64,000 nucleotides of DNA, taken from sequence record LC788706.1; one strand, given 5' to 3'. Origin of the DNA: Escherichia coli phage KS_S14. This document shows positions 7,663 to 61,977 of this stretch, one piece after another (the first letter of the stretch is position 1; each line of letters starts with the position of its first letter). The position numbers and the translations under genes were made by a program. The notes beneath the pieces are model-generated. The model saw only the letters and a list, made by a program, of their open reading frames with translations. It ran no database searches and was not told the DNA's origin.

Positions 7663-8337
7663 ATGGGTCGACAAAAGCTAACAATAAAAGATATAAATAT
7701 TAGATTAGCTGATCGTGGAATCCAAATTGTCGGTGAGTATGTAAACCAACGTACAAAAACAGTATTTAAATGCCAGAGAGCACATGTTTGGGAAGCAACA
7801 CCACATTCTATACTCCATATGGGGAGAGGTTGTCCACACTGCTCCAATAATACAATATCGTTAGATGAAGTTAATAACAGAATATCTAATATAGGGTATA
7901 CTCTGTTAAGCAGCTATACTAATGCTAAAACAAAACTACATCTACGCTGCAATAATGGTCATGACTGTTTAATTACCTTAGATGGATTGACTCAAGGTAA
8001 GAGATGTCCTTATTGTTCTCTTAAGTGGGAGAATGGCGGATTCCTCTATATCATGTCCTCCTCTAGTGGTACTAAAGTAGGCATAAGCTTATACCCTGAG
8101 AAACGGCTGAATGAAGTTAAAAGAGAATCTGGATTTTCTGACCTATACTTGTTCACCATGTATCATCTGCCAGATAGAGAGACTGCTTTAGATTTAGAAA
8201 AGGAAGTTCACAGAGAATATTATAATAAAAACTGTGGGTTTTCTAATTTTACAGGAAGCACGGAATTTTTTAATGTTGCTCCTGAGGATATAGTAATCTT
8301 TCTAAGTAGCTTTGGATTGGAGGATTATGGCCACTAA
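7663..8337 (+). CDS. Putative homing-type endonuclease: duplicated zinc-finger module plus T5orf172/GIY-YIG-like domain
   Basis: Two repeats each ending in C-P-x-C (GCPHCS, RCPYCS); C-terminal GFLYIMSSSSGTKVGIS motif resembles the T5orf172 family; AGGAG 7 nt upstream of ATG. Confidence 0.5.
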   Translation: MGRQKLTIKDINIRLADRGIQIVGEYVNQRTKTVFKCQRAHVWEATPHSILHMGRGCPHCSNNTISLDEVNNRISNIGYTLLSSYTNAKTKLHLRCNNGHDCLITLDGLTQGKRCPYCSLKWENGGFLYIMSSSSGTKVGISLYPEKRLNEVKRESGFSDLYLFTMYHLPDRETALDLEKEVHREYYNKNCGFSNFTGSTEFFNVAPEDIVIFLSSFGLEDYGH

Positions 8338-10475: not shown

Positions 10476-11108
10476 ATGACACAAGCTGCTATTGACTATA
10501 ACAAGTTAAAATCAGCACCCGTTCATTTAGATGCTTATATTAAATCTATTGATAGCGAATCCAAAGAAGGTGTTGTAAAAATCCGTGGATTCGCTAATAC
10601 AATTAGTAAAGATCGCGCTGGTGATGTAATTCCTGCTTCTGCGTGGAAAACGTCTAATGCACTTACTAACTACATGAAAAACCCGATTATTCTTTTCGGA
10701 CACGATCATCGTCGTCCAATCGGTAAGTGTATTGATCTTAATCCTACTGAAATGGGTCTCGAAATCGAATGCGAGATCTATGAAAGTTCTGACCCGGCTA
10801 TCTTTTCACTAATTAAAAACGGTGTACTGAAAACTTTTAGTATCGGATTCCGCTGCCTAGATGCAGAGTGGGATGAAGCTACTGATATATTTATTATTAA
10901 AGATTTAGAACTATACGAAGTCTCGGTAGTTTCTGTACCTTGTAATCAGGACTCAACATTCAATCTCGCTAAGAGCATGAATGGTCATGATTATACTGAA
11001 TGGCGTAAATCTTTTACTGCAATAAGTTCTAAAGCTGTCCCAGCTCAAGAACGTAATCTTTCTGAACTAGAAAAACTTGCGATAGCTTTAGGCTACGTTA
11101 AAGAATAA
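10476..11108 (+). CDS. Prohead protease (pb11-like)
   Basis: 210 aa; located between decoration and major capsid genes. Confidence 0.6.
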   Translation: MTQAAIDYNKLKSAPVHLDAYIKSIDSESKEGVVKIRGFANTISKDRAGDVIPASAWKTSNALTNYMKNPIILFGHDHRRPIGKCIDLNPTEMGLEIECEIYESSDPAIFSLIKNGVLKTFSIGFRCLDAEWDEATDIFIIKDLELYEVSVVSVPCNQDSTFNLAKSMNGHDYTEWRKSFTAISSKAVPAQERNLSELEKLAIALGYVKE

Positions 11109-11125
11109 CGGAGAATTATTTAAAA

Positions 11126-12502
11126 ATGACTATTGATATTAATAAGCTGAAAGAAGAACTTGGTCTGGGTGATCTGGCTAAATCTCTGGAAGGTCTGACC
11201 GCTGCTCAGAAAGCTGCCGAAGCTGAACGTATGCGCAAAGAGCAGGAAGAAAAAGAACTGGCTCGTATGAATGATCTGGTTTCTAAAGCAGTTGGTGAAG
11301 ATCGTCAGAAGCTAGAAGAAGCTCTGGAACTGGTTAAATCCCTGGATGAAAAATCTAAAAAGAGCGCAGAACTGTTTGCACAGACTGTAGAAAAACAGCA
11401 GGAAACTATTATTGGTCTTCAGGACGAAATCAAATCTCTACTGGCAGCTCGTGAAGGACGTTCCTTCGTCGGTGATAGCGTAGCTAAAGCACTGTATGGT
11501 ACTCAGGAAGCTTTCGAAGATGAAGTTGAAAAACTAGTTCTGCTATCTTATGTAATGGAAAAAGGCGTATTCGAAACTGAACATGGTCAGAATCACCTTA
11601 AAGCTGTAAACACCTCTTCTTCAGTTCAGGTTTCTAATGAAAACTATGAAACTATTTTCTCCCAGCGTATCATTCGTGATCTGCAGAAAGAGCTGGTAGT
11701 TGGTGCACTGTTCGAAGAATTGCCGATGTCTAGTAAGATTCTTACTATGCTAGTTGAACCAGATGCTGGTAAAGCTACTTGGGTTGCTGCTTCTACTTAT
11801 GGTACTGATGCAACTACTGGTGAAGAAGTTAAAGGTGCTCTGACTGAAATTCATTTCAGTACTTACAAATTAGCTGCTAAGTCCTTCATTACTGATGAAA
11901 CTGAAGAAGATGCAATCTTCTCTCTGCTGCCTCTGCTGCGTAAACGCCTGATTGAAGCACACGCTGTTTCTATCGAAGAAGCTTTCATGACTGGTGATGG
12001 TTCTGGTAAGCCGAAAGGTCTGCTGACCCTTGCTAGCGAAGATAGTGCTAAGGTTGTTACCGAGGCTAAAGCTGATGGTTCTGTATTAGTAACTGCTAAA
12101 ACTATTTCTAAACTGCGTCGTAAACTGGGCCGTCATGGTCTGAAACTTAGCAAACTAGTACTGATCGTATCTATGGATGCTTATTACGATCTGCTGGAAG
12201 ATGAAGAATGGCAGGATGTTGCACAGGTTGGTAACGATGCTGTTAAACTGCAAGGTCAGGTTGGTCGTATTTATGGTCTGCCAGTTGTAGTTTCTGAATA
12301 CTTCCCTGCTAAAGCTGCTTCCGCAGAATTCGCAGTTATCGTTTATAAAGATAACTTTGTAATGCCGCGTCAGCGTGCTGTTACTGTTGAACGTGAGCGC
12401 CAAGCTGGTAAACAGCGTGACGCGTACTACGTTACCCAGCGTGTTAACCTGCAACGTTACTTTAATAACGGCGTTGTATCCGGTACTTACGCTGCATCTT
12501 AA
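11126..12502 (+). CDS. Major capsid protein precursor
   Basis: 458 aa; N-terminal coiled-coil scaffold-like segment followed by a capsid-like domain; strong codon bias; followed by a strong terminator. Confidence 0.85.
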   Translation: MTIDINKLKEELGLGDLAKSLEGLTAAQKAAEAERMRKEQEEKELARMNDLVSKAVGEDRQKLEEALELVKSLDEKSKKSAELFAQTVEKQQETIIGLQDEIKSLLAAREGRSFVGDSVAKALYGTQEAFEDEVEKLVLLSYVMEKGVFETEHGQNHLKAVNTSSSVQVSNENYETIFSQRIIRDLQKELVVGALFEELPMSSKILTMLVEPDAGKATWVAASTYGTDATTGEEVKGALTEIHFSTYKLAAKSFITDETEEDAIFSLLPLLRKRLIEAHAVSIEEAFMTGDGSGKPKGLLTLASEDSAKVVTEAKADGSVLVTAKTISKLRRKLGRHGLKLSKLVLIVSMDAYYDLLEDEEWQDVAQVGNDAVKLQGQVGRIYGLPVVVSEYFPAKAASAEFAVIVYKDNFVMPRQRAVTVERERQAGKQRDAYYVTQRVNLQRYFNNGVVSGTYAAS

Positions 12503-12523
12503 TACAGGCTTTTCAGCCGATAA

Positions 12524-12550
12524 GGAGAGCTTCGGCTCTCCTTTTTTATT
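12524..12550 (+). terminator. Rho-independent terminator after the capsid gene
   Basis: GGAGAGC-TTCG-GCTCTCC hairpin followed by TTTTTTATT. Confidence 0.7.
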
Positions 12551-12561
12551 GGGAAAAATAA

Positions 12562-13074
12562 ATGCAAATCATCACAGCCGAAGATTATAGATTATATGGT
12601 GGTTTAAAACGACCTGAATTAGAATCTGGTGTAGAAATGATGATTACTGCTGCCAATGCGCTGATTACGAGCCTTCTAGGCATGGATGATGCTGATGCGG
12701 TAGACCAGTTAATCAATACAAAACCTACACGTAGGAAATATTTTCTGAGCTCACCATCTGCTACCTCCGTAACTAAAGTGACGATTAACGATAAGGAGAT
12801 TGACCCAGAGCAGTATAAGCTATACTCTGATGGTATTATCCTTCTCAAATTTAATCCTCCAGAAGGTTATATGGATGTAGCATATACACAAGGTGGATTC
12901 AATCCAATACCTGAAGATCTCAAACTTGCAGCATGTATGTTAGTAGATCATTGGCACAAACAAGATTACCGCCAAGCTAAAACAATTGGTGGAGAAACAG
13001 TTACTTTTAATAATACTAAGTCTGGTATTCCAGAGCATATTCGTACTATTATTGAAGTTTACAGGAGAGTATAA
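12562..13074 (+). CDS. Putative head completion / adaptor protein
   Basis: 170 aa; position directly after the capsid gene; stop overlaps the next start. Confidence 0.4.
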   Translation: MQIITAEDYRLYGGLKRPELESGVEMMITAANALITSLLGMDDADAVDQLINTKPTRRKYFLSSPSATSVTKVTINDKEIDPEQYKLYSDGIILLKFNPPEGYMDVAYTQGGFNPIPEDLKLAACMLVDHWHKQDYRQAKTIGGETVTFNNTKSGIPEHIRTIIEVYRRV

Positions 13075-13841
13075 TGTCTCTTTCTGATTTAGCTACACAA
13101 ATTATCAAGGAGCAATTAGATACTGCGGGACGTTCCGAGAATAATAAGAATACCGTTGTATATTCTGTTGAAACAGGACTGAAAGATCCTACTAGAGATG
13201 GTACTGTTGCTCAGGTATCTTTTAAATTCTCAAAACCTGTATCCCAAGACCTCCTTAATGTTAGGACCGCTTCTATTCTAAAAGCAGTTTCTTCTAGCTT
13301 AGATCTAACAGGAGACTTAGGTGCTTTAGAAAGTCTTATTCAAGCAACCTCTGGTAAAAAATCCTCTGTAGGTAAAAAACGTTCTACTGGTAGAGTTCAA
13401 GTAAACTTTGGAGACCCTAGAGACGTAGAAGATGGATATTCTGGTGCAGTAACAGGTGCTTCAGGACGTTTTGTATCTAATAGCAATATGAAGGTTATTC
13501 TGGAGTTGGTTGCTAAAGAATACTTAATAAAGGATATGAAAAAAGCAGGAGCTCCACTTAAATTTAGAACAGGTCGTTTTGCAAATTCTCTAAAAGTTAA
13601 AGATGTTATGCTTAGAGATACTGGAACTAGCAAAGGTGCTCCTGAATTAAATGTTACATATAATTATATGGTACGTCCATATTCAGTATTTAACCCCGCA
13701 GTGTCTACATATCGAAGATTATCATTACGACCATATCCAGGTGCTAGAAACCCCCAAAAATTAATTGGAGAGGCGATAGCTAAAGCTGCAAGAGACCTAA
13801 TTCACTCCAGATACAAAATTAAGGTTAATCAAGGAACCTAA
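13074..13841 (+). CDS. Structural-module protein, function unknown
   Basis: 255 aa; tightly packed between adaptor-like and tail-completion-like genes. Confidence 0.35.
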   Translation: MSLSDLATQIIKEQLDTAGRSENNKNTVVYSVETGLKDPTRDGTVAQVSFKFSKPVSQDLLNVRTASILKAVSSSLDLTGDLGALESLIQATSGKKSSVGKKRSTGRVQVNFGDPRDVEDGYSGAVTGASGRFVSNSNMKVILELVAKEYLIKDMKKAGAPLKFRTGRFANSLKVKDVMLRDTGTSKGAPELNVTYNYMVRPYSVFNPAVSTYRRLSLRPYPGARNPQKLIGEAIAKAARDLIHSRYKIKVNQGT

Positions 13842-13844
13842 TAA

Positions 13845-14330
13845 ATGGATCACAGAACAAGTATAGCACAAGCTCTGGTTGATCGAATAGCCAAACAAAT
13901 GGATGGCTCTCAACCAGATGAATATTTTAATAACTTGTATGGAAACGTCTCACGTCAAACTTATAAGTTTGAGGAGATACGAGAGTTTCCTTATGTTGCA
14001 GTTCATATCGGAACTGAAACTGGGCAATATCTTCCCTCAGGTCAACAGTGGATGTTTTTAGAACTTCCTATCCTGGTGTATGATAAAGAGAAAACAGACA
14101 TTCAAGAGCAACTTGAAAAACTCGTAGCGGATATAAAAACCGTTATTGACACAGGTGGAAATTTAGAATATACTGTTAGTAAACCTAATGGATCGACCTT
14201 CCCATGTGAGGCGACTGATATGAGCATTACATCAGTTAGTACAGATGAGGGTCTACTGGCCCCATATGGTTTAGCAGAAATAAATGTAACAGTGAGGTAT
14301 CAGCCTCCACGTAGGTCACTTCGCAGATAA
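13845..14330 (+). CDS. Putative tail completion protein (p142-like)
   Basis: 161 aa; immediately upstream of the tail tube gene. Confidence 0.4.
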   Translation: MDHRTSIAQALVDRIAKQMDGSQPDEYFNNLYGNVSRQTYKFEEIREFPYVAVHIGTETGQYLPSGQQWMFLELPILVYDKEKTDIQEQLEKLVADIKTVIDTGGNLEYTVSKPNGSTFPCEATDMSITSVSTDEGLLAPYGLAEINVTVRYQPPRRSLRR

Positions 14331-14356
14331 GTTACAGATTAGGAGAAAATAATTAA

Positions 14357-15754
14357 ATGTCTTTACAACTATTACGTAATACTCGAATCTTCGTGTCTAC
14401 GGTTAAGACTGGTCACAACAAGACCAACACGCAAGAGATTCTAGTTCAGGATGATATTTCTTGGGGTCAGGACAGTAACTCAACAGATATTACTGTTAAC
14501 GAAGCTGGTCCGCGTCCTACTCGTGGTTCTAAACGATTTAACGATTCCTTAAACGCAGCTGAGTGGAGTTTTTCTACTTATATCCTGCCATATATCAATA
14601 AAGATGATCAGAAGCAAATCGTTCCTGACTATATGTTATGGCATGCACTTTCTAGTGGTAAAGCTATTAACTTAGGAGGTAATACAGGAGCACACAATAA
14701 CGAAGCTAACTTCATGGTTAACTTCAAAGATAACTCCTATCATGAGTTAGCAATGTTACATATTTATATTCTGACTGATAAAGCATGGAGTTATATCGAT
14801 TCCTGTCAGATTAACCAGGCAGAAGTTAACGTTGATATTGAGGATATTGGTCGTGTAACTTGGTCCGGTAATGGTAATCAGCTTATTCCTCTGGATGAGC
14901 AACCATTTGACCCAGATGAGTTAGGTATTGATGATGAAACTTATATGACTATCCAGGGTTCTTATATTAAGAACAAACTAACGATCTTGAAGATCAAGGA
15001 TATGGATACCAATAAGTCTTATGACATACCTATTACTGGTGGTACTTTCACTATTAATAACAACATCACGTACCTAACCCCGAATATTATGTCTCGTGTT
15101 AATATTCCGATCGGTTCATTTACTGGCGCATTTGAACTAACTGGTTCATTAACTGCTTATCTGAATGATAAATCTCTTGGTTCTATGGAGCTATACAAAG
15201 ATCTTATCAAGACTCTGAAGGTAGTTAACCGCTTCGAAATTGCTCTAGTACTTGGTGGTGAATACGATGAAGAACGTCCTGCGGCTATTCTGGTAGCTAA
15301 ACAAGCACACGTTAATATTCCTACTATTGAAACTGATGATGTACTTGGTACTTCAGTAGAGTTTAAAGCTATTCCATCTGATCTGGATGCTGGTGATGAA
15401 GGTTACTTAGGCTTCTCTAGTAAATATACCAAAACAACTATTAATAACTTGATTGTTAATGGTGATGGTGCTACTAATGCTGTAACCGCAATTACTGTTA
15501 AATCTGCTGGTGATGCTACTACAGTAAATAACTCGGCTACTCTTCAAATGAGTGTTGAAGTTACTCCTTCTTCCGCAAAGAATAAGGAAGTTACTTGGGC
15601 TATCACTGCCGGTGATGCAGCTACAATTGATCCAGAATCTGGCCTATTAACTGCGGACACCACTAAAACTGGTGAAGTAACTGTAGAAGCTACTGCTAAA
15701 GATGGTTCTGGAGTTAAAGGTACTAAACAGATTACTGTAACAGCAGGTGGCTAA
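14357..15754 (+). CDS. Tail tube protein (pb6-like) with C-terminal Ig-like (Big_2-type) domain
   Basis: 465 aa; C-terminal segment (ATLQMSVEVTP...EVTVEATAKDGSGV) is Ig-like; length and position match T5 pb6 as I recall it. Confidence 0.8.
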   Translation: MSLQLLRNTRIFVSTVKTGHNKTNTQEILVQDDISWGQDSNSTDITVNEAGPRPTRGSKRFNDSLNAAEWSFSTYILPYINKDDQKQIVPDYMLWHALSSGKAINLGGNTGAHNNEANFMVNFKDNSYHELAMLHIYILTDKAWSYIDSCQINQAEVNVDIEDIGRVTWSGNGNQLIPLDEQPFDPDELGIDDETYMTIQGSYIKNKLTILKIKDMDTNKSYDIPITGGTFTINNNITYLTPNIMSRVNIPIGSFTGAFELTGSLTAYLNDKSLGSMELYKDLIKTLKVVNRFEIALVLGGEYDEERPAAILVAKQAHVNIPTIETDDVLGTSVEFKAIPSDLDAGDEGYLGFSSKYTKTTINNLIVNGDGATNAVTAITVKSAGDATTVNNSATLQMSVEVTPSSAKNKEVTWAITAGDAATIDPESGLLTADTTKTGEVTVEATAKDGSGVKGTKQITVTAGG

Positions 15755-15758
15755 TTAA

Positions 15759-16658
15759 ATGTACTACTCTCTAATGAGAGAGTCAAAAGTTATAGTTGAG
15801 TATGATGGTAGGGCATTTCATTTTGATGCCCTATCAAACTATGATATACAGACTTCCTACGAGGAATTCAAGACTCTTCGTAGGACTGTTCATCGTAGAA
15901 CTAACTATGCAGACTCTATTATAAATGCTCAAACCCCTTCTTCTATCTCTCTAGCAGTAAATTTTAGTAATACTCTTACTGAAGCTAACTTCTTTGAATG
16001 GTTAGGTTTTGATAGAAAAGGTAATACTTTCTTACTCCCATTATATAGTAATAATATTGAACCTATTATGTTCAATATCTATATAGTAAACAAAGATAAT
16101 AACTGTGTATATTTTGAAAACTGTTATGTATCTACAGTAGATTTTTCTTTAGATAAGAATATACCAATTCTTAATATTGGTATTGAGTCTGGGAAATTCT
16201 CAGAAGTATCTACCTATAGAGAAGCAGCTTCTATTATACAGGGTGAAGTAATGTCTTACAGCCCAGTAATAGCTTCTACTAATGGCAGCATCTTACCCGG
16301 TCTTATCTCTGCTTCCTTATCTTTCCAACAGCAGTGCTCCTGGAGAGAGGATAAGAGTGTTTTTGATATAAATAAAATTTATAATAATAAAAGAGCCTAT
16401 GTAACTGAAATGAATGCTTCGGCAACCATTTCTCTATACTACTTAAAACGTTTTGCAGGAGATATGGTTTACAATATCGAACCGGAGACAGATGTACCTT
16501 TAAATATAAGAAATAATAATATTTCTATAGATTTTCCTTCAGCACGTATTACAAAACGCCTAGAGTTCTCAGATGTGTATAGAGTTGAGTGGGATGTTAT
16601 ACCTACTGCTTCTTCAGACCCAGTGAGAATAGATTTCTTTGGAGAAATTAAAAAATGA
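15759..16658 (+). CDS. Tail-associated protein (p140-like)
   Basis: 299 aa; between the tail tube and the chaperone-like ORFs. Confidence 0.4.
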   Translation: MYYSLMRESKVIVEYDGRAFHFDALSNYDIQTSYEEFKTLRRTVHRRTNYADSIINAQTPSSISLAVNFSNTLTEANFFEWLGFDRKGNTFLLPLYSNNIEPIMFNIYIVNKDNNCVYFENCYVSTVDFSLDKNIPILNIGIESGKFSEVSTYREAASIIQGEVMSYSPVIASTNGSILPGLISASLSFQQQCSWREDKSVFDINKIYNNKRAYVTEMNASATISLYYLKRFAGDMVYNIEPETDVPLNIRNNNISIDFPSARITKRLEFSDVYRVEWDVIPTASSDPVRIDFFGEIKK

Positions 16659-17059
16659 TTAATTTAAAAGATATTACTCTTGATACTCGTACTATTACTC
16701 TTTCCTACCCAGGTATGCCGAATTTTAAACTAGAACTTAACTATATGTCTCGTGCTACCTCTAAACGTGTTATTTCTTCTGCTAAACGTGATGAATGGGT
16801 TAATGGTACGCTGATACAAGTACAGGATGATGATAAGTTTATTGAAGCCTTTGTTGATGCAGCTATTAAAGGCTGGACTGGCTTAACTGTTGGTGACGTT
16901 GAAAAACTGATGCTGATTGAAACTGATGCTGATCCTGAAACTGAAGTTCCTTTTAGCCGCGACAATGCTGTAATGCTTATGCAGAACTCTGCTGCGTTTG
17001 ATTCTTGGATCAACCAGACAGTGTTCCACTTAGACACTTTTCGTAGCCCAAAAGCGTAA
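16655..17059 (+). CDS. Putative tail assembly chaperone
   Basis: 134 aa, acidic; upstream of the tape measure gene. Confidence 0.35.
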   Translation: MINLKDITLDTRTITLSYPGMPNFKLELNYMSRATSKRVISSAKRDEWVNGTLIQVQDDDKFIEAFVDAAIKGWTGLTVGDVEKLMLIETDADPETEVPFSRDNAVMLMQNSAAFDSWINQTVFHLDTFRSPKA

Positions 17060-17120
17060 AGAACTCCTAGATGCTGTTGCTGATTTTGCAGATAAGTGTA
17101 TTAAAAGCTCAGCATCTAAA

Positions 17121-17489
17121 ATGACTAAACAACAATATTTAATACTTTGTGAATCAATGGGTATAGAGCCTGATCCTAAGGCCATACCTGTTGAACTTGA
17201 AGACTTTCCACCTATTGTAGCTACTAGTATGAATATTTATAATAGTCTAATTGACTGTTTCATACCTGGTGACTTCCCTATCTTTATAGGTAAAGACAAA
17301 GCTGCTCTAGGTGTTTTATTTGATATTTATGGGATTACTGATCCTATAGAAAAAGAATTTGTTCTACACATTATCAATATATTTGATGCTAAAGCTGTAG
17401 ATGCTGCACGTAAACGTGCTGAGAAGCATAAACCGCAAAACGGAAGGATTCCTAACGTTAAGCCACATGCTAGATCTCGTGCACGGTAA
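17121..17489 (+). CDS. Putative tail assembly protein; its frame is open upstream to 17034
   Basis: 122 aa from the first ATG; the same frame is stop-free from 17034 and overlaps the end of the previous ORF. Confidence 0.35.
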   Translation: MTKQQYLILCESMGIEPDPKAIPVELEDFPPIVATSMNIYNSLIDCFIPGDFPIFIGKDKAALGVLFDIYGITDPIEKEFVLHIINIFDAKAVDAARKRAEKHKPQNGRIPNVKPHARSRAR

Positions 17490-17523
17490 AAGTTTCCTCC
17501 AATGGGCGTTCCACGATGAGGCT

Positions 17524-17557
17524 TGGCTCTGGGTGATTTGCCCAGAGCCTTTTTTTA
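17524..17557 (+). terminator. Rho-independent terminator
   Basis: GGCTCTGGG-loop-CCCAGAGCC hairpin followed by TTTTTTTATT. Confidence 0.7.
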
Positions 17558-17573
17558 TTGGGAAAAATAAAAC

Positions 17574-20500
17574 ATGACTGATAAGCTAATACGAGAATTA
17601 CTAATAGACGTTAAACAGAAGGGGGCAACTCGTACTGCAAAGTCTATTGAAAACGTATCTGATGCGTTGGAAAATGCTGCTGCTGCTTCCGAACTGACAA
17701 ATGAGCAGTTAGGTAAAATGCCCAAAACTCTTTATTCCATTGAGAGGGCAGCAGACAGAGCAGCAAAAAGTCTTACTAAAATGCAAGCTAGTAGGGGTAT
17801 GGCTGGTATCACCAAATCTATTAATGATATTGGTGATAAACTAGATTACCTAGCTATCCAACTTATTGAAGTAACAGATAAACTAGAAATTGGATTCGAT
17901 GGAGTTTCTAGATCTGTTAAAACAATGGGCAATGATGTTGCAGCTGCAACAGAGAAAGTTCAAGATAGGTTATACGATACTAATAGAGTTTTAGGCGGTA
18001 CAACCAGAGGTTTTAATGATACTGCTGGTGCCGCTGGTAGAGCGTCTAGAGCCATTGGTAATACTTCTGGTTCAGCACGTGGTGCAACTCGTGATTTTGC
18101 AGCAATGGCTAAGATAGGTGGTAGTTTACCTATTATGTACGCAGCTCTTGCTTCCAACATCTTCGTTTTGCAATCAGCATTTGAACAACTTAAACTAGGT
18201 GATCAGCTAAATCGTTTAGAAAAATTTGGTGTTATAGTAGGTACTCAGACAGGTACTCCTGTTCAGACCCTTGCTAGATCACTACAAGAAGCTGCTGGAT
18301 ATGCTATTTCTTTTGAGGAAGCAATGAGACAGGCATCTTCAGCATCAGCTTATGGGTTTGATGCCGAACAACTTAATAAATTTGGTTTAGTAGCTCGTCG
18401 TGCGGCTGCTGTTCTTGGCGTTGATATGACTGATGCACTTAACCGTGTAATTAAGGGCGTATCTAAACAAGAAATCGAACTTCTGGATGAACTTGGTGTC
18501 ACCATTCGTCTTAATGACGCATACGCTGATTATGTTAAACAGTTAAATGCTGCAAACACAGGTATAACATATAATGTTAATAGTCTTACCACTTTCCAGA
18601 AGCAACAAGCATACGCTAATGCGGTAATTGCTGAATCTACTAAGCGTTTTGGCTACCTAGATGAAGTACTACGTGCAACTCCATGGGAGCAATTTGCTGC
18701 TAATGCAGATGCTGCACTAAGAAAAATACAACAAGCTGCTGCTAAGTATTTAGGGCCAGTAATTGATGCTATCAACACAGTATTTTATACATCTCAGGCT
18801 TCTATATCTGCTGAGGCAGCTAGGGCCCAAGAAAAAACTAATAGACAGATAGACCCTACCAACGTTGGTGCTGTTGCTTTAAGTTTAGCTGCATCTGAAG
18901 AAGGCTATAATAAAGCTCTAGATATGTATAAGGAATCTCTTGATAAGCGTAATAAGCTAAAATCTGAGTTCGATAAACGAATGGAACAAGCAGATTTCTA
19001 TACAAAACTAGCTATACGTCAAGTTGGTGAAGGTATTCCTATTGGTCTTGCAGCAGCAGGTGCCTCGGAGGCCAATAAGCAATTTGTAGCAGAAACTGCA
19101 GCTATGGGTCTACAAGTAACTAGACTTGGTAAGGAAGTAGAGGATTCTACAGAGAACCTCAATGCTTGGAAATCAGCGTATCAAGCTGCCGGGGCTGCTG
19201 CTGCAAAGGCTAGTCCAGAGTTTCAGAAGCAAATTAATCTACAGAGAGATACTACTGATCCTGGTGCTGTATATGATTTTAACTCTACTGTATTAAAAGG
19301 ACTAACTGAGCAGCAGAAAGCATACAATCAGACTAAGAAAACTGCTAGTGACTTAGCTAATGATATACAGAACGTTGCTCAGAATACAGATACTGCTGCT
19401 AAAACTAGTGCTACTTTAGCAGATGCTATAAAAAACATAGAATCTCTATCTCTAGGTACTGGTAAGAGTGCTGATGAATACGTTAAAAATCTTAACCTAG
19501 GCTATAATACTCTGTCTGAAATGAAAACTGCGTCTCAGGCCTTATCTGAGTACGTTAAACTAACTGGTAATGAGACTAAGAACCAGTTAGCAGTTCAACA
19601 GAAGATAGCTGACGTATACAACCAAACTAAAGATAAAGAAAAAGCACAGGAAGCTGGTAGGCGTTTAGAACTCCAACAGTTAGAAGAGCAAGAAGCTGCT
19701 TTACGCCGTGTACTTCAAACTAATCAGGGAAATAAAGCTGTTGAGAAAGAAATTGAAAAAATTCAGCTGGAGAAACTTAAACTTACTAATCAGGGTATGG
19801 AGGCTCAGAAGAAGGTTAAGGATTATACAGATAAAATCCTGGGTGTAGATCGTGAGATAGCTCTCTTAAATAACCGTACTATGACAGATACTCAGTATCG
19901 TCTAGCACAGTTAAATCTTGAATTGACCATTGAAAAGGAAAAGTACGAATGGTATACAAAACAAGCTGATAAACAGAAAGAGGCTGAACAGTCTAGACGT
20001 GCTCAAGCCCAAATTGAACGTGAAATCTGGAAATTCCGCCAAGATCAGATTGCTTCAATGGCTGCTGGTAGAGAGGAAGAACAGCAAAGACAATTTACTG
20101 CTAAACCACTAATGGGAAATGCGGAGCGCTTACAGGAACAGCTAAAATTATATGAAGACTTAAAGCAGAAAACATTAGGTAATGCTGCGGCACAAGCGGA
20201 GTATAATAAAAAGATAGCTGAAACTAGGGCACAACTAGCAGGTTTAAGGGCACAGAGAAATGCGGAGATGCAAGCTTCTGTTGGATCTTCTTTAGGTGCT
20301 GTGTATACTCCTACAACTGGACTATCTGGAGAAGATAAAGATTTTGCTGATATGGGAAATAGAATGGCTTCTTATGATCAGGCAATTTCTAAACTATCTG
20401 AGTTAAATTCCGAAGCAACTGCTGTAGCTCAAAGCATGGGTAATTTAACCAATGCTATGATTCAGTTCTCTATGGGGTCTTTAGACACTACTTCCACGAT

Positions 20501-21254
20501 CGCAGCAGGTATGCAGACTGTAGCCTCTATGATTCAATATAGTACTAGTCAACAGGTTAGTGCGATTGATCAGGCTATTGCAGCAGAGCAGAAACGAGAT
20601 GGTAAATCAGAAGCATCTAAAGCTAAGTTGAAGAAGTTGGAAGCTGAAAAGCTGAAGATTCAACAAGACGCAGCTAAGAAGCAGATTATCATCCAAACTG
20701 CAGTAGCTGTAATGCAGGCAGCCACCGCTGTTCCATATCCGTTCTCTATTCCACTAATGGTTGCGGCAGGTTTGGCGGGTGCCTTAGCTCTTGCTCAAGC
20801 ATCTTCTGCTTCTAGTATGTCAAGTATTGCTGATTCGGGAGCTGATACAACTAGTTACTTAACCTTAGGAGAGCGTCAGAAGAATATAGATGTGTCTATG
20901 TCTGCTAATGCAGGTGAACTATCTTATATTCGTGGAGATAAAGGCATAGGCGGTGCTAACTCTTTCGTTCCTCGCGCTGAGGGTGGTAATATGTACCCTG
21001 GGGTTAGCTATCAAATGGGTGAGCATGGTACAGAAGTAGTTACCCCTATGGTTCCTATGAAAGCTACACCTAATGATGAGCTAAAAACCTCATCTAACTC
21101 AACTTCAGGAAGACCTATCATCTTGAATATTAGTGCTATGGATGCTGCAAGTTTCAGAGAGTTTGCTTCTAGTAATAGTAGTGCTCTAAGAGACGCAGTA
21201 GAATTAGCTCTGAATGAGAACGGTGCTAGTTTGAAAACATTAGGAAATTCTTAA
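17574..21254 (+). CDS. Tail tape measure protein (pb2-like)
   Basis: 1226 aa, largely alpha-helical/coiled-coil with Ala/Gln-rich repeats and a hydrophobic segment near the C-terminus (VMQAATAVPYPFSIPLMVAAGLAGALALA). Confidence 0.85.
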   Translation: MTDKLIRELLIDVKQKGATRTAKSIENVSDALENAAAASELTNEQLGKMPKTLYSIERAADRAAKSLTKMQASRGMAGITKSINDIGDKLDYLAIQLIEVTDKLEIGFDGVSRSVKTMGNDVAAATEKVQDRLYDTNRVLGGTTRGFNDTAGAAGRASRAIGNTSGSARGATRDFAAMAKIGGSLPIMYAALASNIFVLQSAFEQLKLGDQLNRLEKFGVIVGTQTGTPVQTLARSLQEAAGYAISFEEAMRQASSASAYGFDAEQLNKFGLVARRAAAVLGVDMTDALNRVIKGVSKQEIELLDELGVTIRLNDAYADYVKQLNAANTGITYNVNSLTTFQKQQAYANAVIAESTKRFGYLDEVLRATPWEQFAANADAALRKIQQAAAKYLGPVIDAINTVFYTSQASISAEAARAQEKTNRQIDPTNVGAVALSLAASEEGYNKALDMYKESLDKRNKLKSEFDKRMEQADFYTKLAIRQVGEGIPIGLAAAGASEANKQFVAETAAMGLQVTRLGKEVEDSTENLNAWKSAYQAAGAAAAKASPEFQKQINLQRDTTDPGAVYDFNSTVLKGLTEQQKAYNQTKKTASDLANDIQNVAQNTDTAAKTSATLADAIKNIESLSLGTGKSADEYVKNLNLGYNTLSEMKTASQALSEYVKLTGNETKNQLAVQQKIADVYNQTKDKEKAQEAGRRLELQQLEEQEAALRRVLQTNQGNKAVEKEIEKIQLEKLKLTNQGMEAQKKVKDYTDKILGVDREIALLNNRTMTDTQYRLAQLNLELTIEKEKYEWYTKQADKQKEAEQSRRAQAQIEREIWKFRQDQIASMAAGREEEQQRQFTAKPLMGNAERLQEQLKLYEDLKQKTLGNAAAQAEYNKKIAETRAQLAGLRAQRNAEMQASVGSSLGAVYTPTTGLSGEDKDFADMGNRMASYDQAISKLSELNSEATAVAQSMGNLTNAMIQFSMGSLDTTSTIAAGMQTVASMIQYSTSQQVSAIDQAIAAEQKRDGKSEASKAKLKKLEAEKLKIQQDAAKKQIIIQTAVAVMQAATAVPYPFSIPLMVAAGLAGALALAQASSASSMSSIADSGADTTSYLTLGERQKNIDVSMSANAGELSYIRGDKGIGGANSFVPRAEGGNMYPGVSYQMGEHGTEVVTPMVPMKATPNDELKTSSNSTSGRPIILNISAMDAASFREFASSNSSALRDAVELALNENGASLKTLGNS

Positions 21255-21258
21255 AACT

Positions 21259-21290
21259 GGAGGAGGACTTTGAGTCCTCCTTTTCTTTAT
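21259..21290 (+). terminator. Rho-independent terminator
   Basis: GGAGGACT-TTGA-GTCCTCC hairpin followed by TTTTCTTTAT. Confidence 0.7.
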
Positions 21291-21363
21291 GGAAAAATAA
21301 AAATTTCTTGATAAAATTTTCTAATACTATTATAATATTGTTATTAAAGAGGAGAAATTAACT

Positions 21364-21978
21364 ATGAGATTACCAGACCCATACACGAATCCAGAACTTT
21401 CAGGCTTAGGATTCGAAAGTGTTAACCTGATTGATAATGACCCAGTAATTCGTGATGAGTTACCAAATGGTAAAGTTAACGAAGTTAAGGTATCTGCTCA
21501 ATACTGGGGTATAAATATTTCTTATCCAGAATTATTTCCAGATGAATATAGTGTTCTAGATGCATTTATTCTAGAATACAAAAGGACTGGTGGTTATATA
21601 GATGTTATATTACCACAATACGAAGCTTTTAGAGTTAGAGGTAATACTAGCCTAGTAAATATACCTGCTGGACAGAAGGGTTCTAATATAACTATGGATA
21701 CAAAAGGACTTCTCACAGGTATTCCAAAACCAGGGGATCTATTTAAGCTATCTAACCATCCAAAAGTATATAAAATAACATCATTCAATAAATCAGGCAA
21801 TACGTGGTCTATAAACTTATACCCTGATTTATTTATAACTACTACTGGGGCTGAGAAACCAGTGTTTAACGGAATACTATTTAGAACAAAACTCATGAAT
21901 GGTGATGCTTTCGGATCTACATTAAATAATAACGGAACATATTCCGGCATCTCATTAAATTTACGGGAAAGTTTATGA
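21364..21978 (+). CDS. Distal tail protein (Dit, pb9-like)
   Basis: 204 aa; first gene after the tape measure; RBS context ATTAAAGAGGAGAAATTAACTATG. Confidence 0.6.
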   Translation: MRLPDPYTNPELSGLGFESVNLIDNDPVIRDELPNGKVNEVKVSAQYWGINISYPELFPDEYSVLDAFILEYKRTGGYIDVILPQYEAFRVRGNTSLVNIPAGQKGSNITMDTKGLLTGIPKPGDLFKLSNHPKVYKITSFNKSGNTWSINLYPDLFITTTGAEKPVFNGILFRTKLMNGDAFGSTLNNNGTYSGISLNLRESL

Positions 21979-24824
21979 AGAAAATACTAGATAGTGCTAG
22001 AAACTACTTAAAAAATAATAGCAGAATAAAAACTGCTAGTCTAATTTCCCTAGAATTACCTGGCTCTACTGGTACTAGTACTGCTTTTATTTATTTAACT
22101 GATTATTTTAGAGATGTACTATATAATGGTATTTTGTACCAGGCCGGTAAGGTTAAGTCCATTAGCACACATAAACAAAATAGAGATTTATCTATTGGCA
22201 GTCTATCTTTTACTATTACGGGTACAGCGCAGGATGAAGTACTGAAATTAGTGCAGAATGGTGTGTCCTTTTTAGATAGAATAGTAACAATCCACCAAGC
22301 AATTATTACAGAGGATGGTTCTATTTTACCTGTAGACCCAGACACAAATGGCCCTTTATTATACTTTAGAGGGAGAATTACCGGTGGGGGTATTAAGGAC
22401 AACATTAGTACTTCTGGGGTTGGAACCTCCACAATTACTTGGAATTGTTCTAACCAATTCTATGACTTTGATAGGGTTAACGGTAGATTTACTGATGATG
22501 CTTCTCATAGAGGGCTTGAGGTTGTAGCAGGGCAATTAGTTCCATCTAACGGGGCTAAAAGACTTGAGTACCAAGAAGATTATGGGTTCTTTCATGCTAA
22601 TAAAAGTATCTCTATTTTAGCAAAATATCAGGTACAGGAAGAGAGATACAAGCTAAAGTCTAAGAAAAAGCTATTTGGCCTATCTAGAAGCTATAGTCTT
22701 AAAAAGTATTATGAGACTGTTACTAAAGAAGTAGATATAGATTTTAACCTTGCTGCTAAGTATATACCAGTAGTTTATGGTGTACAGAAAATACCAGGAA
22801 TACCTATTTTTGCGGATACGGAACTACACAATCCTAATATAGTTTATGTAGTATACGCCTTTGCTGAAGGGGAGATAGACGGTTTTCTTGACTTTTCCTT
22901 CGGGGATAACCCTATGATTTGTATGGACTCTAATGATAGCTCTGCTAGAACCTGTTTCGGTGTTAAAAAAGTAGCAGGAGACACCATGCAAAGAATAGCA
23001 TCAGGAATATCTTCTAGTAGTCCTTCTGTGCATGGTCAGGAATATAAGTATAATGATGGTAATGGTGATATAAGGATTTGGACTTATCATGGAAAAGCTG
23101 ATCAAACGGCTTCTGAAGTATTAGTAGACATAGCGAAAGAACGTGGGTTCTACCTTCAGAATATGAATGGCAATGGACCGGAGTACTGGGATGCTAGGTA
23201 TAAACTACTAGATACTGCATACGCAGTGGTGCGCTTCACTATTAATGAAAATAGGACTGAGATTCCTGAAGTTAGTGCTGAAATTCAAGGTAAAAAAGTA
23301 AAAGTCTATCATTCTGATGGTAGAGTAACTGCTAATAGTACTAGTTTAAATGGTATTTGGCAAACACTTGACTACTTAACCTCCGATAGATACGGTGCTA
23401 ATATTACCATTGATCAGTTCCCTCTTCAGCAATTAATACAGGAAGCAGCTATTTTAGATATTATAGATGAATCCTATCAGGTATCTTGGCAGCCATATTG
23501 GAGATACGTTGGGTGGACTGATCCACTAGCAGAAAATAGACAAATAGTACAAATGAATACTATTCTGGATACATCTGAATCAGTATTTAAAAATGTGCAA
23601 GGTTTATTAGAGTCCTACGGTGGGGCTATTAACAACTTATCTGGCCAGTACAGGATTACTGTAGAAAAATACTCTAATACTCCATTAGAGATTAATTTTC
23701 TAGATACTTACGGTGATTTGGAGCTATCAGATACTACTGGTAGAAATAAATTCAACTCAGTTCAAGCATCTATCGTAGATCCAGCCCTTAGCTGGAAAAC
23801 TAATTCCATTACATTCTATAACTCCAAGTATAAGGAACAGGACAAGAACCTAGACAAAAAATTACAATTATCTTTTGCAAATATAACTAACTACTATACT
23901 GCTAGAAGTTTTGCAGACAGAGAACTTAAGAAATCTAGGTATTCTAGAACCCTCTCATTTTCTTTACCATATCAATTCATTGGTATTGAGCCTAATGATG
24001 CTATTGCATTTACATACGACCGTTACGGATGGGATAAGAAGTACTTTTTAGTAGATGAAGTCGAAAACTCTAGGGAAGGAAAGATAAATGTTACTCTACA
24101 GGAGTATGGAAAAGATGTATTCATCAACTCTGATCAAGTAGATAATAGTGGTAATGATATACCAGATATTAGTAACAACGTTCTTCCTCCTAGAGATTTT
24201 AAGTATACTCCTACACCCGGTGGCTTAGTTGGTTCTATAGGTAAAAATGGTGAGTTATCCTGGCTTCCGAGTCTAACCAATAATGTAGTTTATTACTCTA
24301 TTGTGCACTCAGGCCATGCCGAACCTTACATAGTACAACAGTTAGAGACCAATCCTAACGAACGTATGATCCAAGAAATAATTGGGGAACCAGCAGGTCT
24401 GGCTATATTTGAGATAAGAGCAGTAGATATTAATGGTAGAAGAAGTTCCCCGGTGACTCTGTCTATAGAACTTAACTCTGCTAAAAACCTTAGTGTAGTA
24501 TCTAATTTTAGGGTAACTAATACTGCTTCTGGAGATGTAACTGAGTTTGTTGGCCCAGATGTAAAACTAGCTTGGGATAGAATACCTGAAGAAGATATAA
24601 TAGAGAGTATATTTTATACACTTGAAATACACGATTCGCAAAATAGGATGTTAAGAAGTGTACGTATTGAAAATCAGTATACTTATGACTATTTATTAAC
24701 ATATAATAAGGCAGACTTTGCTCTCCAGAACAGCGGTGCTCTAGGTATAAATAGAAAATTGTATTTTCGTATTAGGGCTGAAGGGGATGATGGAGAACAG
24801 TCTGTGGAGTGGGCATCCATTTAA
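21975..24824 (+). CDS. Baseplate hub / tail tip protein (pb3-like)
   Basis: 949 aa; follows Dit; length matches my recollection of T5 pb3. Confidence 0.7.
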   Translation: MKKILDSARNYLKNNSRIKTASLISLELPGSTGTSTAFIYLTDYFRDVLYNGILYQAGKVKSISTHKQNRDLSIGSLSFTITGTAQDEVLKLVQNGVSFLDRIVTIHQAIITEDGSILPVDPDTNGPLLYFRGRITGGGIKDNISTSGVGTSTITWNCSNQFYDFDRVNGRFTDDASHRGLEVVAGQLVPSNGAKRLEYQEDYGFFHANKSISILAKYQVQEERYKLKSKKKLFGLSRSYSLKKYYETVTKEVDIDFNLAAKYIPVVYGVQKIPGIPIFADTELHNPNIVYVVYAFAEGEIDGFLDFSFGDNPMICMDSNDSSARTCFGVKKVAGDTMQRIASGISSSSPSVHGQEYKYNDGNGDIRIWTYHGKADQTASEVLVDIAKERGFYLQNMNGNGPEYWDARYKLLDTAYAVVRFTINENRTEIPEVSAEIQGKKVKVYHSDGRVTANSTSLNGIWQTLDYLTSDRYGANITIDQFPLQQLIQEAAILDIIDESYQVSWQPYWRYVGWTDPLAENRQIVQMNTILDTSESVFKNVQGLLESYGGAINNLSGQYRITVEKYSNTPLEINFLDTYGDLELSDTTGRNKFNSVQASIVDPALSWKTNSITFYNSKYKEQDKNLDKKLQLSFANITNYYTARSFADRELKKSRYSRTLSFSLPYQFIGIEPNDAIAFTYDRYGWDKKYFLVDEVENSREGKINVTLQEYGKDVFINSDQVDNSGNDIPDISNNVLPPRDFKYTPTPGGLVGSIGKNGELSWLPSLTNNVVYYSIVHSGHAEPYIVQQLETNPNERMIQEIIGEPAGLAIFEIRAVDINGRRSSPVTLSIELNSAKNLSVVSNFRVTNTASGDVTEFVGPDVKLAWDRIPEEDIIESIFYTLEIHDSQNRMLRSVRIENQYTYDYLLTYNKADFALQNSGALGINRKLYFRIRAEGDDGEQSVEWASI

Positions 24825-31037: not shown

Positions 31038-31078
31038 AGAAAACCCCAGTGGACAAAATCCACTGGGGTTTATTATTT
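31038..31078. terminator. Bidirectional rho-independent terminator between the convergent fibre and dut genes
   Basis: CCCCAGTGG-loop-CCACTGGGG hairpin flanked by an A-run upstream and a T-run downstream. Confidence 0.6.
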
Positions 31079-34735: not shown

Positions 34736-35693
34736 ATTTCGCAGCTCTAGCCAAGATTCTATCAATGTCGCCTTGAGACAGCTTCTCGACTTCACGGAAG
34801 TAAAGTTCAAGTTCCCCTAACATATCAAGATCAACAAGATTTAACTTAGCGTCTTTAGTAACTCGATGGTTAATCTTCTTATCTAACAAATCAGAGTCTT
34901 TAATAGACTTTAATTGAACAACGTCACCAGTAACTTCATAGACTACACGATCATAATCACTAGGTTCCATCTCTTCACCTGCTCCGATTGTTTTACGAAT
35001 CAGTTGTGGTAAATCACCTAGTTCAATCCATTCTACTTTTAATGTGTCGGTATCAATGATAAAGCAACCATTTGTACCTTTTGTGCGTTCTCTATGGAAC
35101 GATGTAGTTAATGGAGATCCTGGGTAGAGAAGTCTAGTAGATCCGATAGTCTGGCTATTAGTATAAGAATGTAAATCGCCAGCAATTACAGTATCATAAC
35201 AGTTGTACTTAGTTAGATCAATTTCTGGTTTTACATGTGGAGGGATTTCACCACGAACATGCGTGAAACATAGTTTTGATACAGGAGGTTTCCACTTAGA
35301 TTTATGGATTTCGTCATATGGAACAATATCAAATTCAGGGGAACGATATGGTTTGGTAATTACTTCCCACTTACCACTCGTTACTTTATTAATAACTCCT
35401 GCATAATGATATAGGCATGAAATAGTCTTAGTTATTAATTCATGATTACCTGTAAATACCATTCCTATATGATCTAGCCTAGACATAAATTTTTCTAGAA
35501 GTTCTACTTCTTCCGACGACGGGTCGGAATGATCAAATAAATCACCACCAATAATATGCAAATCACAGTTATGATTATGGAATATATCATTTAACCGTTC
35601 TCCTAGCATCAGGAAGCGACGCTTCTGCCATTCTTTGGGTATCTTATCTTGGCCCAGCTTAATATGATGATCAGCACTAAATAATATTCTCAT
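34716..35693 (-). CDS. SbcD/Mre11-like nuclease (D12-like)
   Basis: Metallophosphoesterase motifs (SADHH, GGDLFDH, TGNHE, GDLHS); upstream partner of the SbcC-like gene. Confidence 0.8.
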   Translation of the reverse strand: MRILFSADHHIKLGQDKIPKEWQKRRFLMLGERLNDIFHNHNCDLHIIGGDLFDHSDPSSEEVELLEKFMSRLDHIGMVFTGNHELITKTISCLYHYAGVINKVTSGKWEVITKPYRSPEFDIVPYDEIHKSKWKPPVSKLCFTHVRGEIPPHVKPEIDLTKYNCYDTVIAGDLHSYTNSQTIGSTRLLYPGSPLTTSFHRERTKGTNGCFIIDTDTLKVEWIELGDLPQLIRKTIGAGEEMEPSDYDRVVYEVTGDVVQLKSIKDSDLLDKKINHRVTKDAKLNLVDLDMLGELELYFREVEKLSQGDIDRILARAAKYVKDYN

Positions 35694-61911: not shown

Positions 61912-61938
61912 GGAGATCTTCGGGTCTCCTTTTTCTTT
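61912..61938 (+). terminator. Rho-independent terminator after nrdA
   Basis: GGAGATC-TTCG-GGTCTCC hairpin followed by TTTTTCTTT. Confidence 0.65.
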
Positions 61939-61948
61939 GAAATTTTAC

Positions 61949-61977
61949 TTGCTAATCGCTACCTGATTTGCTATAAT
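61949..61977 (+). promoter_or_regulatory. Sigma70-type promoter upstream of nrdB
   Basis: TTGCTA, 17-nt spacer, TATAAT. Confidence 0.5.

Follow-up and report, generated by a model that had tools for sequence, protein, structure and literature searches.

The sequence that recurs behind three terminator hairpins in the late region of this phage is, with a probability of about 0.85, not one element but two ordinary A-rich signals that look alike and that both adjoin the T-tail of a terminator. At the first two sites, behind the major capsid gene (site 1) and behind the tail chaperone genes (site 2), an intrinsic (Rho-independent) terminator contributes TTTTTT(T)ATT as its U-tract, and the following gene contributes a weak Shine-Dalgarno (SD) sequence, GGGA, and the A-rich spacer AAAATAA(AAC) ahead of its ATG. 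At the third, behind the tape measure gene (site 3), the A-rich string appears to be the upstream block of the sigma-70 promoter PG25. Public records already contain annotations of the terminators, the ribosome-binding sites, and PG25, and explaining this striking repeat in a T5-like late operon requires no new regulator. The observation made in the earlier note is confirmed, and its interpretation is partly supported.

Occurrence and constraint of the repeat

The 64-kb window, that is, the whole stretch of DNA analyzed, belongs to a T5-like phage (Demerecviridae) and shows 96% identity to phage OSYSP. Unless stated otherwise, the features described below lie on its plus strand. The 17-mer TTATTGGGAAAAATAAA has exact copies at 12546 and 17555, sites 1 and 2 have an exact 21-mer in common, and a search of both strands of the window for the 11-mer GGAAAAATAAA returned 3 copies, at 12552, 17561, and 21291. 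All 3 copies lie on one strand and in one context, directly 3' of a strong terminator hairpin, and the motif is thus real at each of the sites where the earlier note had placed it. In an A+T-rich genome, such likeness could be a chance product of low-complexity A/T-rich sequence, and the 17-mer with up to 3 mismatches is indeed not rarer than in shuffled sequences (2 found versus 0.83 expected). However, the 11-mer is expected only 0.13 times in shuffles and three exact copies were reached in 0 of 100 of them, and this result, together with the single strand, the single context, and the conservation in relatives, refutes chance as the explanation.

For a whole-genome motif search we used the complete genome of the closest relative, OSYSP (110,901 bp), in which GGAAAAATAAA is present at the 3 syntenic sites only; outside the T5 group the core of the motif is replaced. 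Within approximately 25 T5-group genomes the 11-mer is nearly invariant while synonymous sites vary. Across 25 distinct T5-group sequences, 3% to 11% of the intergenic columns vary versus 45% to 78% of third codon positions, and the whole intergenic regions are constrained as much as first and second codon positions. This constraint exceeds the needs of a generic terminator plus SD. Likewise, the identity of the 21-mer at sites 1 and 2 and of the 11-mer, which includes site 3, goes beyond the demands of function, and shared ancestry or an extra constraint may contribute to it.

Terminators joined to start regions at the capsid and tape measure junctions

The site-1 terminator, 3' of the major capsid gene, is the hairpin GGAGAGC-UUCG-GCUCUCC (12524–12541), which A-U pairs can extend to 12522–12543 (−12.0 kcal/mol for the core, −14.5 kcal/mol extended). 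In the DNA, GGAGAGC-TTCG-GCTCTCC is followed by TTTTTTATTGGGAAAAATAA (12542–12561) and by the ATG of the head-tail adaptor gene at 12562. This interval consists of the U-tract TTTTTTATT (12542–12550), which forms the first half of the reported motif and is retained in Escherichia, Klebsiella, Proteus, and Providencia phages and in Vibrio phage phi3, and of a translation initiation region (12551–12561) with the weak SD GGGA (12551–12554) and the A-rich spacer AAAATAA. The SD core reads GGGT, GGAGG, ATGGGT, TAGGT, AGGAG, GGGG, or GGAG in relatives. A weak AU hairpin displaying the SD (UUUAUU-GGGAAA-AAUAAA) is also predicted here, but its energy is marginal and it is a trivial result of a T-run beside an A-run.

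The site-2 terminator, 3' of the tail chaperone genes, is the hairpin GGCUCUGGGU-GAUUU-GCCCAGAGCC (17525–17549, −19.1 kcal/mol). The order in the DNA is GGCTCTGGGT-GATTT-GCCCAGAGCC, then TTTTTTTATTGGGAAAAATAAAAC (17550–17573), and then the ATG of the tape measure gene (pb2) at 17574, with the U-tract TTTTTTTATT at 17550–17559 and a translation initiation region at 17560–17573 that comprises the weak SD GGGA (17560–17563) and the spacer AAAATAAAAC. In close relatives the core is constant, and this spacer varies in length and sequence (AAAAC, AAAAT, AAATT, or none). The site-2 region has no similarity to E. coli DNA.

The 3 hairpins rank among the most stable terminator-like structures of the late region (−14.5, −19.1, and −14.8 kcal/mol for sites 1 to 3), start 5 to 36 nt after the stop codons at 12502, 17489, and 21254, and have the build of intrinsic terminators, with a G+C-rich hairpin past the stop and a U-rich tract of approximately 7 to 9 nt. 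All three are annotated as Rho-independent terminators in the T5 record (NC_005859), where the same hairpins and T-tails occupy the same gene junctions and the site-1 sequence is identical. T5 differs at site 2, at which the leader and its motif copy are replaced by an inserted endonuclease-like gene, T5.141, and its record is silent on the shared 11-mer. Among 11 relatives the site-1 hairpin is fully (100%) paired, and 5 of its 9 pairs have changed in a compensatory manner; the site-2 hairpin is likewise fully paired among 10 relatives, and 6 of its 9 pairs have so changed. The covariation score of these two sites was reached in 0 of 500 shuffles and all cells were paired. This shows that structure rather than sequence is under selection in the hairpins. 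Moreover, the layout of sites 1 and 2 (hairpin, T-tail, SD, A-rich spacer, ATG) recurs in Klebsiella, Serratia, Proteus, Providencia, Enterobacter, Erwinia, and Vibrio phages and is kept where protein identity falls to approximately 29%.

In one reading offered by the earlier note, the motif unites a terminator tail and a GGGA-type ribosome-binding site, and at sites 1 and 2 this reading is supported. The distance from the end of GGGA to the ATG is 7 nt at site 1 and 10 nt at site 2, GGGA pairs with the anti-SD sequence, the homologous position in distant relatives carries SD variants (GGGT, GGAA, GGAGG, AGGAG, GGTG, AGGTG, GGGG, or GGAG), and a ribosome-binding site behind the terminator is already annotated at both sites in phages Spivey and Slocum. 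The GGGA:anti-SD duplex is weak (−4.2 kcal/mol; −6 to −11.6 kcal/mol for most genes of the late operon). A GGGA-type SD also precedes pb3, where no terminator is present, and such weak SDs are therefore not specific to the terminator sites. The possibility that the motif at sites 1 and 2 contains a promoter was rejected, since it lacks a −35/−10 pair and the space ahead of the ATG is too small.

Since no promoter fits between hairpin and ATG, the adaptor and tape measure genes would be transcribed by read-through only, and they probably depend on read-through of the terminators. No strong promoter-like site is present between the site-2 hairpin and 17574, nor from 12562 to the late promoter PJ5 (14146–14174; TTGACA, 17-nt spacer, TATACT), which is identical to the P-J5 feature of T5. 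PJ5 is the next strong promoter past site 1 and starts the unit that is closed by the site-2 terminator. We propose that most transcripts stop after the genes for high-copy proteins (the major capsid protein at site 1, the tail tube and chaperones at site 2), and that the share reading through is translated from the weak SD, possibly with the U- and A-rich flanks aiding ribosome binding via protein S1. The outcome would be small amounts of the low-copy adaptor and tape measure proteins. Partial termination, its purpose in dosage, and a role for S1 are inferred, and the compact joining of terminator and start region probably sets the dosage gap between capsid or tail tube and adaptor or tape measure. 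Internal terminators that set dosage are known from T7 (T-phi, after capsid gene 10), from the rplL-rpoB attenuator, and from the E. coli rpsU-dnaG terminator. As in these systems, an intra-operon hairpin with a U-tract follows a highly expressed gene and promoterless downstream genes need read-through; unlike them, the U-tract runs directly into the start region of the following gene, with 9 to 10 nt from hairpin to SD, and partial termination is here a proposal. The layout, conserved from Escherichia to Vibrio phages, is useful for annotating operon boundaries and true start codons. For phage engineering, inserts at these junctions, of which T5.141 is a natural case, alter the leader of the downstream gene.

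The exact 21-mer that sites 1 and 2 have in common could also stem from a terminator-plus-leader cassette that was moved or copied by recombination or gene conversion, or that was mobile in the manner of the T4-type PeSL, regulatory modules made of an early promoter and a stem-loop. The site-2 spacer of SH9-type phages, which matches that of site 1 exactly, and the mobile endonuclease-like genes that insert at these very junctions are in line with copying. However, the three hairpins have mutually unrelated sequences, the sites are syntenic throughout the family back to the Vibrio phages, and the complete OSYSP genome holds no extra copies. In addition, the site-1 and site-2 leaders largely group by site and not by genome, and within Spivey, RP7, and phi3 the two leaders differ, with no consistent concerted evolution. 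The arrangement resembles the T4 modules in that a stem-loop and an expression signal recur between genes and mobile genes adjoin, and differs from them in its syntenic positions, its unrelated hairpins, the lack of a promoter at 2 of the 3 sites, and the absence of evidence for mobility. We therefore consider cassette copying very improbable.

The third copy and promoter PG25

The site-3 terminator, 3' of the tape measure gene, is a hairpin at 21259–21283 (−14.8 kcal/mol) followed by TCTTTATGGAAAAATAAAAATTTC, with TTTTCTTTAT as its U-rich tract. The sequence of the hairpin differs in every genus and relative, yet it is perfectly paired. A related version of the motif is present behind it, as the earlier note had reported, but what comes next is a sigma-70 promoter and not a start codon. 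The string GGAAAAATAAAAATTT (21291–21306) ends 1 nt ahead of the PG25 core promoter (TTGATA, 17-nt spacer, TATAAT; 21308–21336), which has 11 of 12 consensus matches and is nearly identical to the annotated P-G25 of T5. In the T5 record the P-G25 feature begins at TATGGAAAAATAAAAATTTC, with the promoter placed from TATGGAAAAATAAAA onward; the feature differs by 1 nt from the sequence of the window and starts with the site-3 motif. PG25 drives Dit (ATG at 21364; strong SD GAGGAG at 21349–21354) and the distal tail genes. Late transcripts from PG25 and PJ5 have been mapped in vivo, those from PG25 by primer extension (PMC7472727). Literature searches returned nothing beyond that study, neither transcript-end data for T5-like phages nor a described motif, and the BF23 paper contained no nick-site consensus for comparison.

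An SD region was not found at site 3, where the motif is not followed by the start codon of a gene: the nearest gene ATG lies 63 nt past the motif and the GAGGAG of Dit 58 nt downstream, and the sole ATG at the motif is that of an overlapping 3-codon frame, ATG-GAA-AAA-TAA. An UP-like position was found at this site only. The 15-mer GAAAAATAAAAATTT recurs ahead of the −35 element of an early promoter on the minus strand (36935–36921), and an ATAAAAA block near −43 is common among the promoters of the window. The site-3 motif is kept only in the T5 group and in Erwinia phage KEY. Further out it gives way to unrelated A/T sequence, and it is instead an ATAAAA block, at constant spacing from the −35 element, that is conserved. 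Judged by its sequence and position, the site-3 copy is the A-rich upstream block (approximately −43, UP-like) of PG25, and it may function as an UP element. Strong sigma-70 promoters such as rrnB P1 carry an UP element or A-tract upstream block, and the group of Bujard reportedly described an A+T-rich −43 block in T5 promoters. The likeness consists of an A-rich run directly before a near-consensus −35 element that recurs at other promoters of the window. The match of site 3 to the UP consensus is only rough, and sites 1 and 2, being promoterless, are not UP elements. According to the mechanism proposed above, the site-3 terminator would close the tape measure unit and PG25 would restart transcription for the tail-tip genes.

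These results bear on the suggestion in the earlier note of a late regulatory element before late genes. The motif stands before 2 of approximately 28 late-strand gene starts and at 1 of the late promoters, and on the late strand of the window it is absent from PJ5 and from the remaining late genes; it is not a general late-gene signal. A narrower possibility is that GGAAAAATAAA, which contains a loose dyad (TTATT-N6-AATAA), is the sequence-specific site of one late regulator, for example an antiterminator or translational repressor that binds DNA or RNA at each of the 3 terminators. The restriction of the 11-mer to terminators in both the window and OSYSP, its near-invariance in the T5 group, and the capacity of the weak AU hairpin to show GGGAAA in its loop would all fit such a site. 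However, outside the T5 group the core shifts in an SD-like manner (GGGT, GGAGG, AGGAG, GGTG) and its position relative to the T-tail moves. The loss of conservation at site 3 beyond the T5 group and KEY, the sharing of the site-3 version with an early promoter, the absence from PJ5 and other late genes, and the viability of T5 without the site-2 copy also argue against it. A common regulator is accordingly quite improbable, and two separate signals remain our preferred reading.

Conserved blocks upstream of the site-2 terminator

Approximately 32 nt directly upstream of the site-2 hairpin (17493–17524) are conserved family-wide, beyond the level of the neighboring proteins. They contain the non-coding blocks TTTCCTCCA (17493–17501, block A), GGGCGTTCCACGA (17504–17516, block B), and TGAGGCTT. 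Blocks A and B occur in one copy per genome, and a pattern scan of viral contigs matched T5-like genomes only, with one exception: an unrelated G+C-rich contig of 43.6 kb, evidently a chance match. An Rfam scan of 11000–22500 at E values up to 10 gave sub-threshold noise only.

These blocks could belong to an RNA module with a post-transcriptional role, approximately 90 nt long and present at site 2 throughout the family, that would run from the CU-rich UUUCCUCCA and the block GGGCGUUCCACGA through the terminator and U-tail to the weak SD. In one version of this model, a helix enclosing the terminator forms between the upstream blocks on one side and the U-tract and SD on the other, a clamp in the read-through mRNA that would repress translation of the next gene. 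In the other, the blocks are the seed of an sRNA derived from the abundant tail-tube/chaperone transcript, whose terminated 3' end would be released; sRNAs of 3' origin typically consist of a CU-rich stretch, a terminator, and a U-tail. In the minimum-free-energy structure of the window, UUCC.CGAUGAGG is paired with UUUUAUUGGGAA, giving the SD a predicted pairing probability of 0.90, and the predictions for Slocum, PR1, phi3, and Thalassa show similar pairs. This and the exceptional conservation of the blocks are consistent with the module. However, the putative outer helix shows no covariation, consists mostly of G-U pairs, and is broken in several relatives, and the predicted folds of KEY, RP7, and KKP3711 differ and leave the SD open. 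The blocks are also unchanged whichever SD is present, and site 1 has the same motif without such blocks. An RNA module at site 2 is thus possible but rather unlikely, and we favor an ordinary terminator tail followed by a weak SD at this site as well.

Two other roles for blocks A and B were rejected. One is that of an antiterminator of the site-2 hairpin, with whose 5' arm they have no complementarity. The other is that of a coding sequence: their translation as FPPMGVPR-stop is attractive, and phage KEY carries a synonymous-looking change from CCACGA to CCTAGA, but their frame relative to the upstream stop codon differs among phages and indels of 1 to 2 nt break it.

Hairpin and motif at three late junctions

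All 550 phage records matching positions 12000-18000 were T5-like phages of the family Demerecviridae, the best being Escherichia phage OSYSP (96% identity). The late structural operon (1 to ~31036, + strand) encodes, all on this strand, the major capsid protein (11126-12502), the head-tail adaptor (12562-13074), the tail tube protein pb6 (14357-15754), two tail chaperones (16655-17059 and 17121-17489), the tape measure protein pb2 (17574-21254), and the distal tail protein (21364-21978). Where the late and early units converge there is a hairpin (31041-31071, both strands, 13-14 bp, T-runs on both strands), whose T5 counterpart is annotated as an efficient bidirectional terminator.

The earlier note described a recurrent hairpin-plus-motif cassette at 12524-21303, and direct reading of all three sites (all + strand) bears this out. 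Site 1, after the capsid gene, consists of the hairpin GGAGAGC-TTCG-GCTCTCC (12524-12541), TTTTTTATTGGGAAAAATAA, and the ATG at 12562; site 2, before the tape measure gene, of a hairpin (17525-17549), TTTTTTTATTGGGAAAAATAAAAC, and the ATG at 17574; and site 3, after the tape measure gene, of a hairpin (21259-21283) and TCTTTATGGAAAAATAAAAATTTC, with no gene start after the motif. Exact copies of the 17-mer common to sites 1 and 2 start at 12546 and 17555. The 11-mer core shared by all three sites, GGAAAAATAAA, occurred 3 times in the window (both strands searched) versus 0.13 expected, a count reached in 0 of 100 shuffles, and every copy lies directly behind a terminator-like hairpin that ranks among the stronger ones on the late strand (-14.5, -19.1, and -14.8 kcal/mol). 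The motif search extended to relatives gave the same picture: the 11-mer was present solely at the same three syntenic sites in the complete OSYSP genome (110,901 bp) and was confined to them in 28 T5-group contigs (~20 kb each).

Terminator tails and weak ribosome-binding sites

The motif has two identities: at sites 1 and 2 it is a terminator tail joined to a weak ribosome-binding site, and at site 3 it is the upstream block of a promoter. The proposal that it combines a terminator tail with a GGGA-type ribosome-binding site holds for sites 1 and 2 but not for site 3. At sites 1 and 2, its initial 9-10 bases, TTTTTT(T)ATT, form the terminator U-tract, GGGA lies 7 nt (site 1) or 10 nt (site 2) from the ATG, and the portion past GGGA is an A-rich spacer. 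Pairing of GGGA with the 16S 3' end (-4.2 kcal/mol) is among the weaker in the operon, most late genes reaching -6 to -11.6 kcal/mol. Both junctions were compared in phages Klebsiella Spivey, Serratia Slocum, Proteus RP7, Providencia PR1, Enterobacter KKP_3711, and Erwinia KEY, and in the Vibrio phages phi3, D51, Thalassa, and pVp-1, in which adaptor protein identity falls to 26-35%. The order hairpin, T-tail, G-rich core, A-rich spacer, ATG was kept at both, with GGGT, GGAA, GGAGG, AGGAG, GGTG, AGGTG, GGGG, or GGAG as core. Because the core changes among Shine-Dalgarno (SD)-like forms while the layout persists, this sequence comparison settles the question: the core varies as an SD sequence would, unlike a specific protein site. 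The annotation of Spivey and Slocum already marks a terminator and then a ribosome-binding site at both junctions, and the T5 reference record labels each of the three hairpins a putative Rho-independent terminator. For T5 and relatives, the terminators, ribosome-binding sites, and the late promoter PG25 have already been annotated or published. The exact leader identity between sites 1 and 2 in KS_S14 exceeds strict functional need.

The other role suggested for the motif, a dedicated late regulatory element, was not borne out, since it is found at just 2 of ~28 late-strand starts, is absent from the late promoter PJ5, and is replaced at site 2 of T5. There, T5.141, an endonuclease-like gene with CapR and treble-clef domains, is inserted immediately 3' of TTTTTTATT, displacing GGGAAAAATAAA, and pb2 has a different leader. 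A mobile cassette is also improbable because the three hairpins are mutually unrelated and the sites are syntenic across Demerecviridae. A gene of the same kind as T5.141, which in T5 lies precisely at the junction of the site-2 U-tract with pb2, follows the terminase terminator in the window (7663-8337, + strand; 224 aa; CapR, treble-clef zinc-finger (DUF4379), and T5orf172 domains); the T5 locus in this comparison is L001 (25778-26530, - strand). Mobile endonuclease-like genes seem to land right behind terminators.

The hairpin-to-ATG gap is merely 20-24 nt at sites 1 and 2, no promoter-like site was found within it, and the first strong promoter past site 1 is PJ5 (14146-14174), identical to the T5 P-J5 feature. 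We therefore infer that the adaptor, tail completion, tail terminator, and tape measure genes are transcribed solely via read-through. The T5 virion contains hundreds of copies of the capsid and tail tube proteins, about a dozen of the adaptor, and three of the tape measure protein, and a leaky terminator combined with a weak SD would match this dosage step. The U-tract and A-rich spacer around the weak SD may serve as an unstructured, S1-binding sequence. Both sites resemble known internal terminators, T7 T-phi and the rplL-rpoB attenuator among them.

In the same operon, the second chaperone ORF almost lacks an SD (-0.1 kcal/mol) and its frame is open back to ~17034, overlapping the 3' end of the first, which suggests a +1/-2 recoding fusion (17034-17125, + strand) resembling that of G/GT chaperones in other siphophages. 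The region contains a CCCAAAA heptamer, but its -1 frame closes within a few codons.

Site 3 and the PG25 promoter

Site 3 continues as GGAAAAATAAAAATTT, 1 nt, TTGATA-17-TATAAT (11 of 12 matches), a strong SD (GAGGAG), and the ATG at 21364. The T5 P-G25 feature starts exactly at TATGGAAAAATAAAAATTTC and departs from the window sequence at one base, and PG25 and PJ5 transcripts were detected late in infection by primer extension (PMC7472727). The 15-mer GAAAAATAAAAATTT has a second window copy (36935-36921, - strand) directly upstream of the -35 of TTGCTA-18-TATAAT, an early promoter that is the counterpart of T5 P31B, and an ATAAAAA block lies at equal distance in other window promoters. Together with the PG25 position, these copies identify the site-3 motif as an A-rich, UP-like block lying upstream in a sigma-70 promoter. 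Beyond the T5 group, the 11-mer was kept at site 3 in Erwinia phage KEY alone among the relatives compared; the terminator, A/T block, and near-consensus promoter were retained.

Selection on hairpins and non-coding DNA

Across 10-11 diverse sequences, every cell of the site-1 and site-2 hairpins was paired, with both-side changes at 5 of 9 and 6 of 9 pairs, respectively, and covariation scores reached by 0 of 500 shuffles. Both hairpins are under structural selection. Among 25 distinct T5-group sequences, 3-11% of intergenic columns were variable versus 45-78% of third codon positions, which indicates purifying selection on the entire intergenic regions, beyond the motif alone.

Just 5' of the site-2 hairpin, past the chaperone stop, lies a 32-nt non-coding element (17493-17524, + strand: TTTCCTCCA, a 2-nt linker, GGGCGTTCCACGA, and TGAGGCTT), present once per genome and conserved in all Demerecviridae examined. 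Vibrio phages, whose gene past the terminator is not tape measure, carry it in the recognisable form GAGTCCTCAcGGGCATTCCACGAG. When viral contigs were scanned for its pattern, all matches fell in T5-like genomes, bar one evident chance match in an unrelated G+C-rich contig, and neither an Rfam match nor E. coli DNA similarity was found. Its variable linker length and an indel in the G-run exclude a coding sequence. This conserved element is the basis for a further reading, in which its two blocks (17493-17516), the terminator, U-tail, and weak SD act as one post-transcriptional module. In the predicted fold of the window, UUCC.CGAUGAGG forms a helix with the U-tract and SD that spans the terminator base (SD pairing probability 0.90); this helix showed no covariation and a different fold is predicted in several relatives, and we consider such a module unlikely.

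The site-1 hairpin has kept almost the same sequence in phages ranging from Escherichia to Proteus and Providencia, despite only ~30-35% identity of the adjoining proteins. Upstream of it (12506-12523, + strand), a small GGC-loop-GCC hairpin and an invariant GCCG(G)A are kept in most enterobacterial relatives, with variation confined to the loop. A third case of a terminator immediately before an ATG, with neither G-rich SD core nor motif, lies in the early region of the window (35724-35693, - strand: hairpin AGAGGGGCTTCGGCCCCTTT, then CTTTTTAACTT, ATG at 35693), at what is the D11/D12 junction in T5. Three near-identical C(UUCG)G tetraloop terminators of the GGAGAGCTTCGGCTCTCC type are located at 12524-12541 (+), 35722-35707 (-), and 61934-61951 (+).
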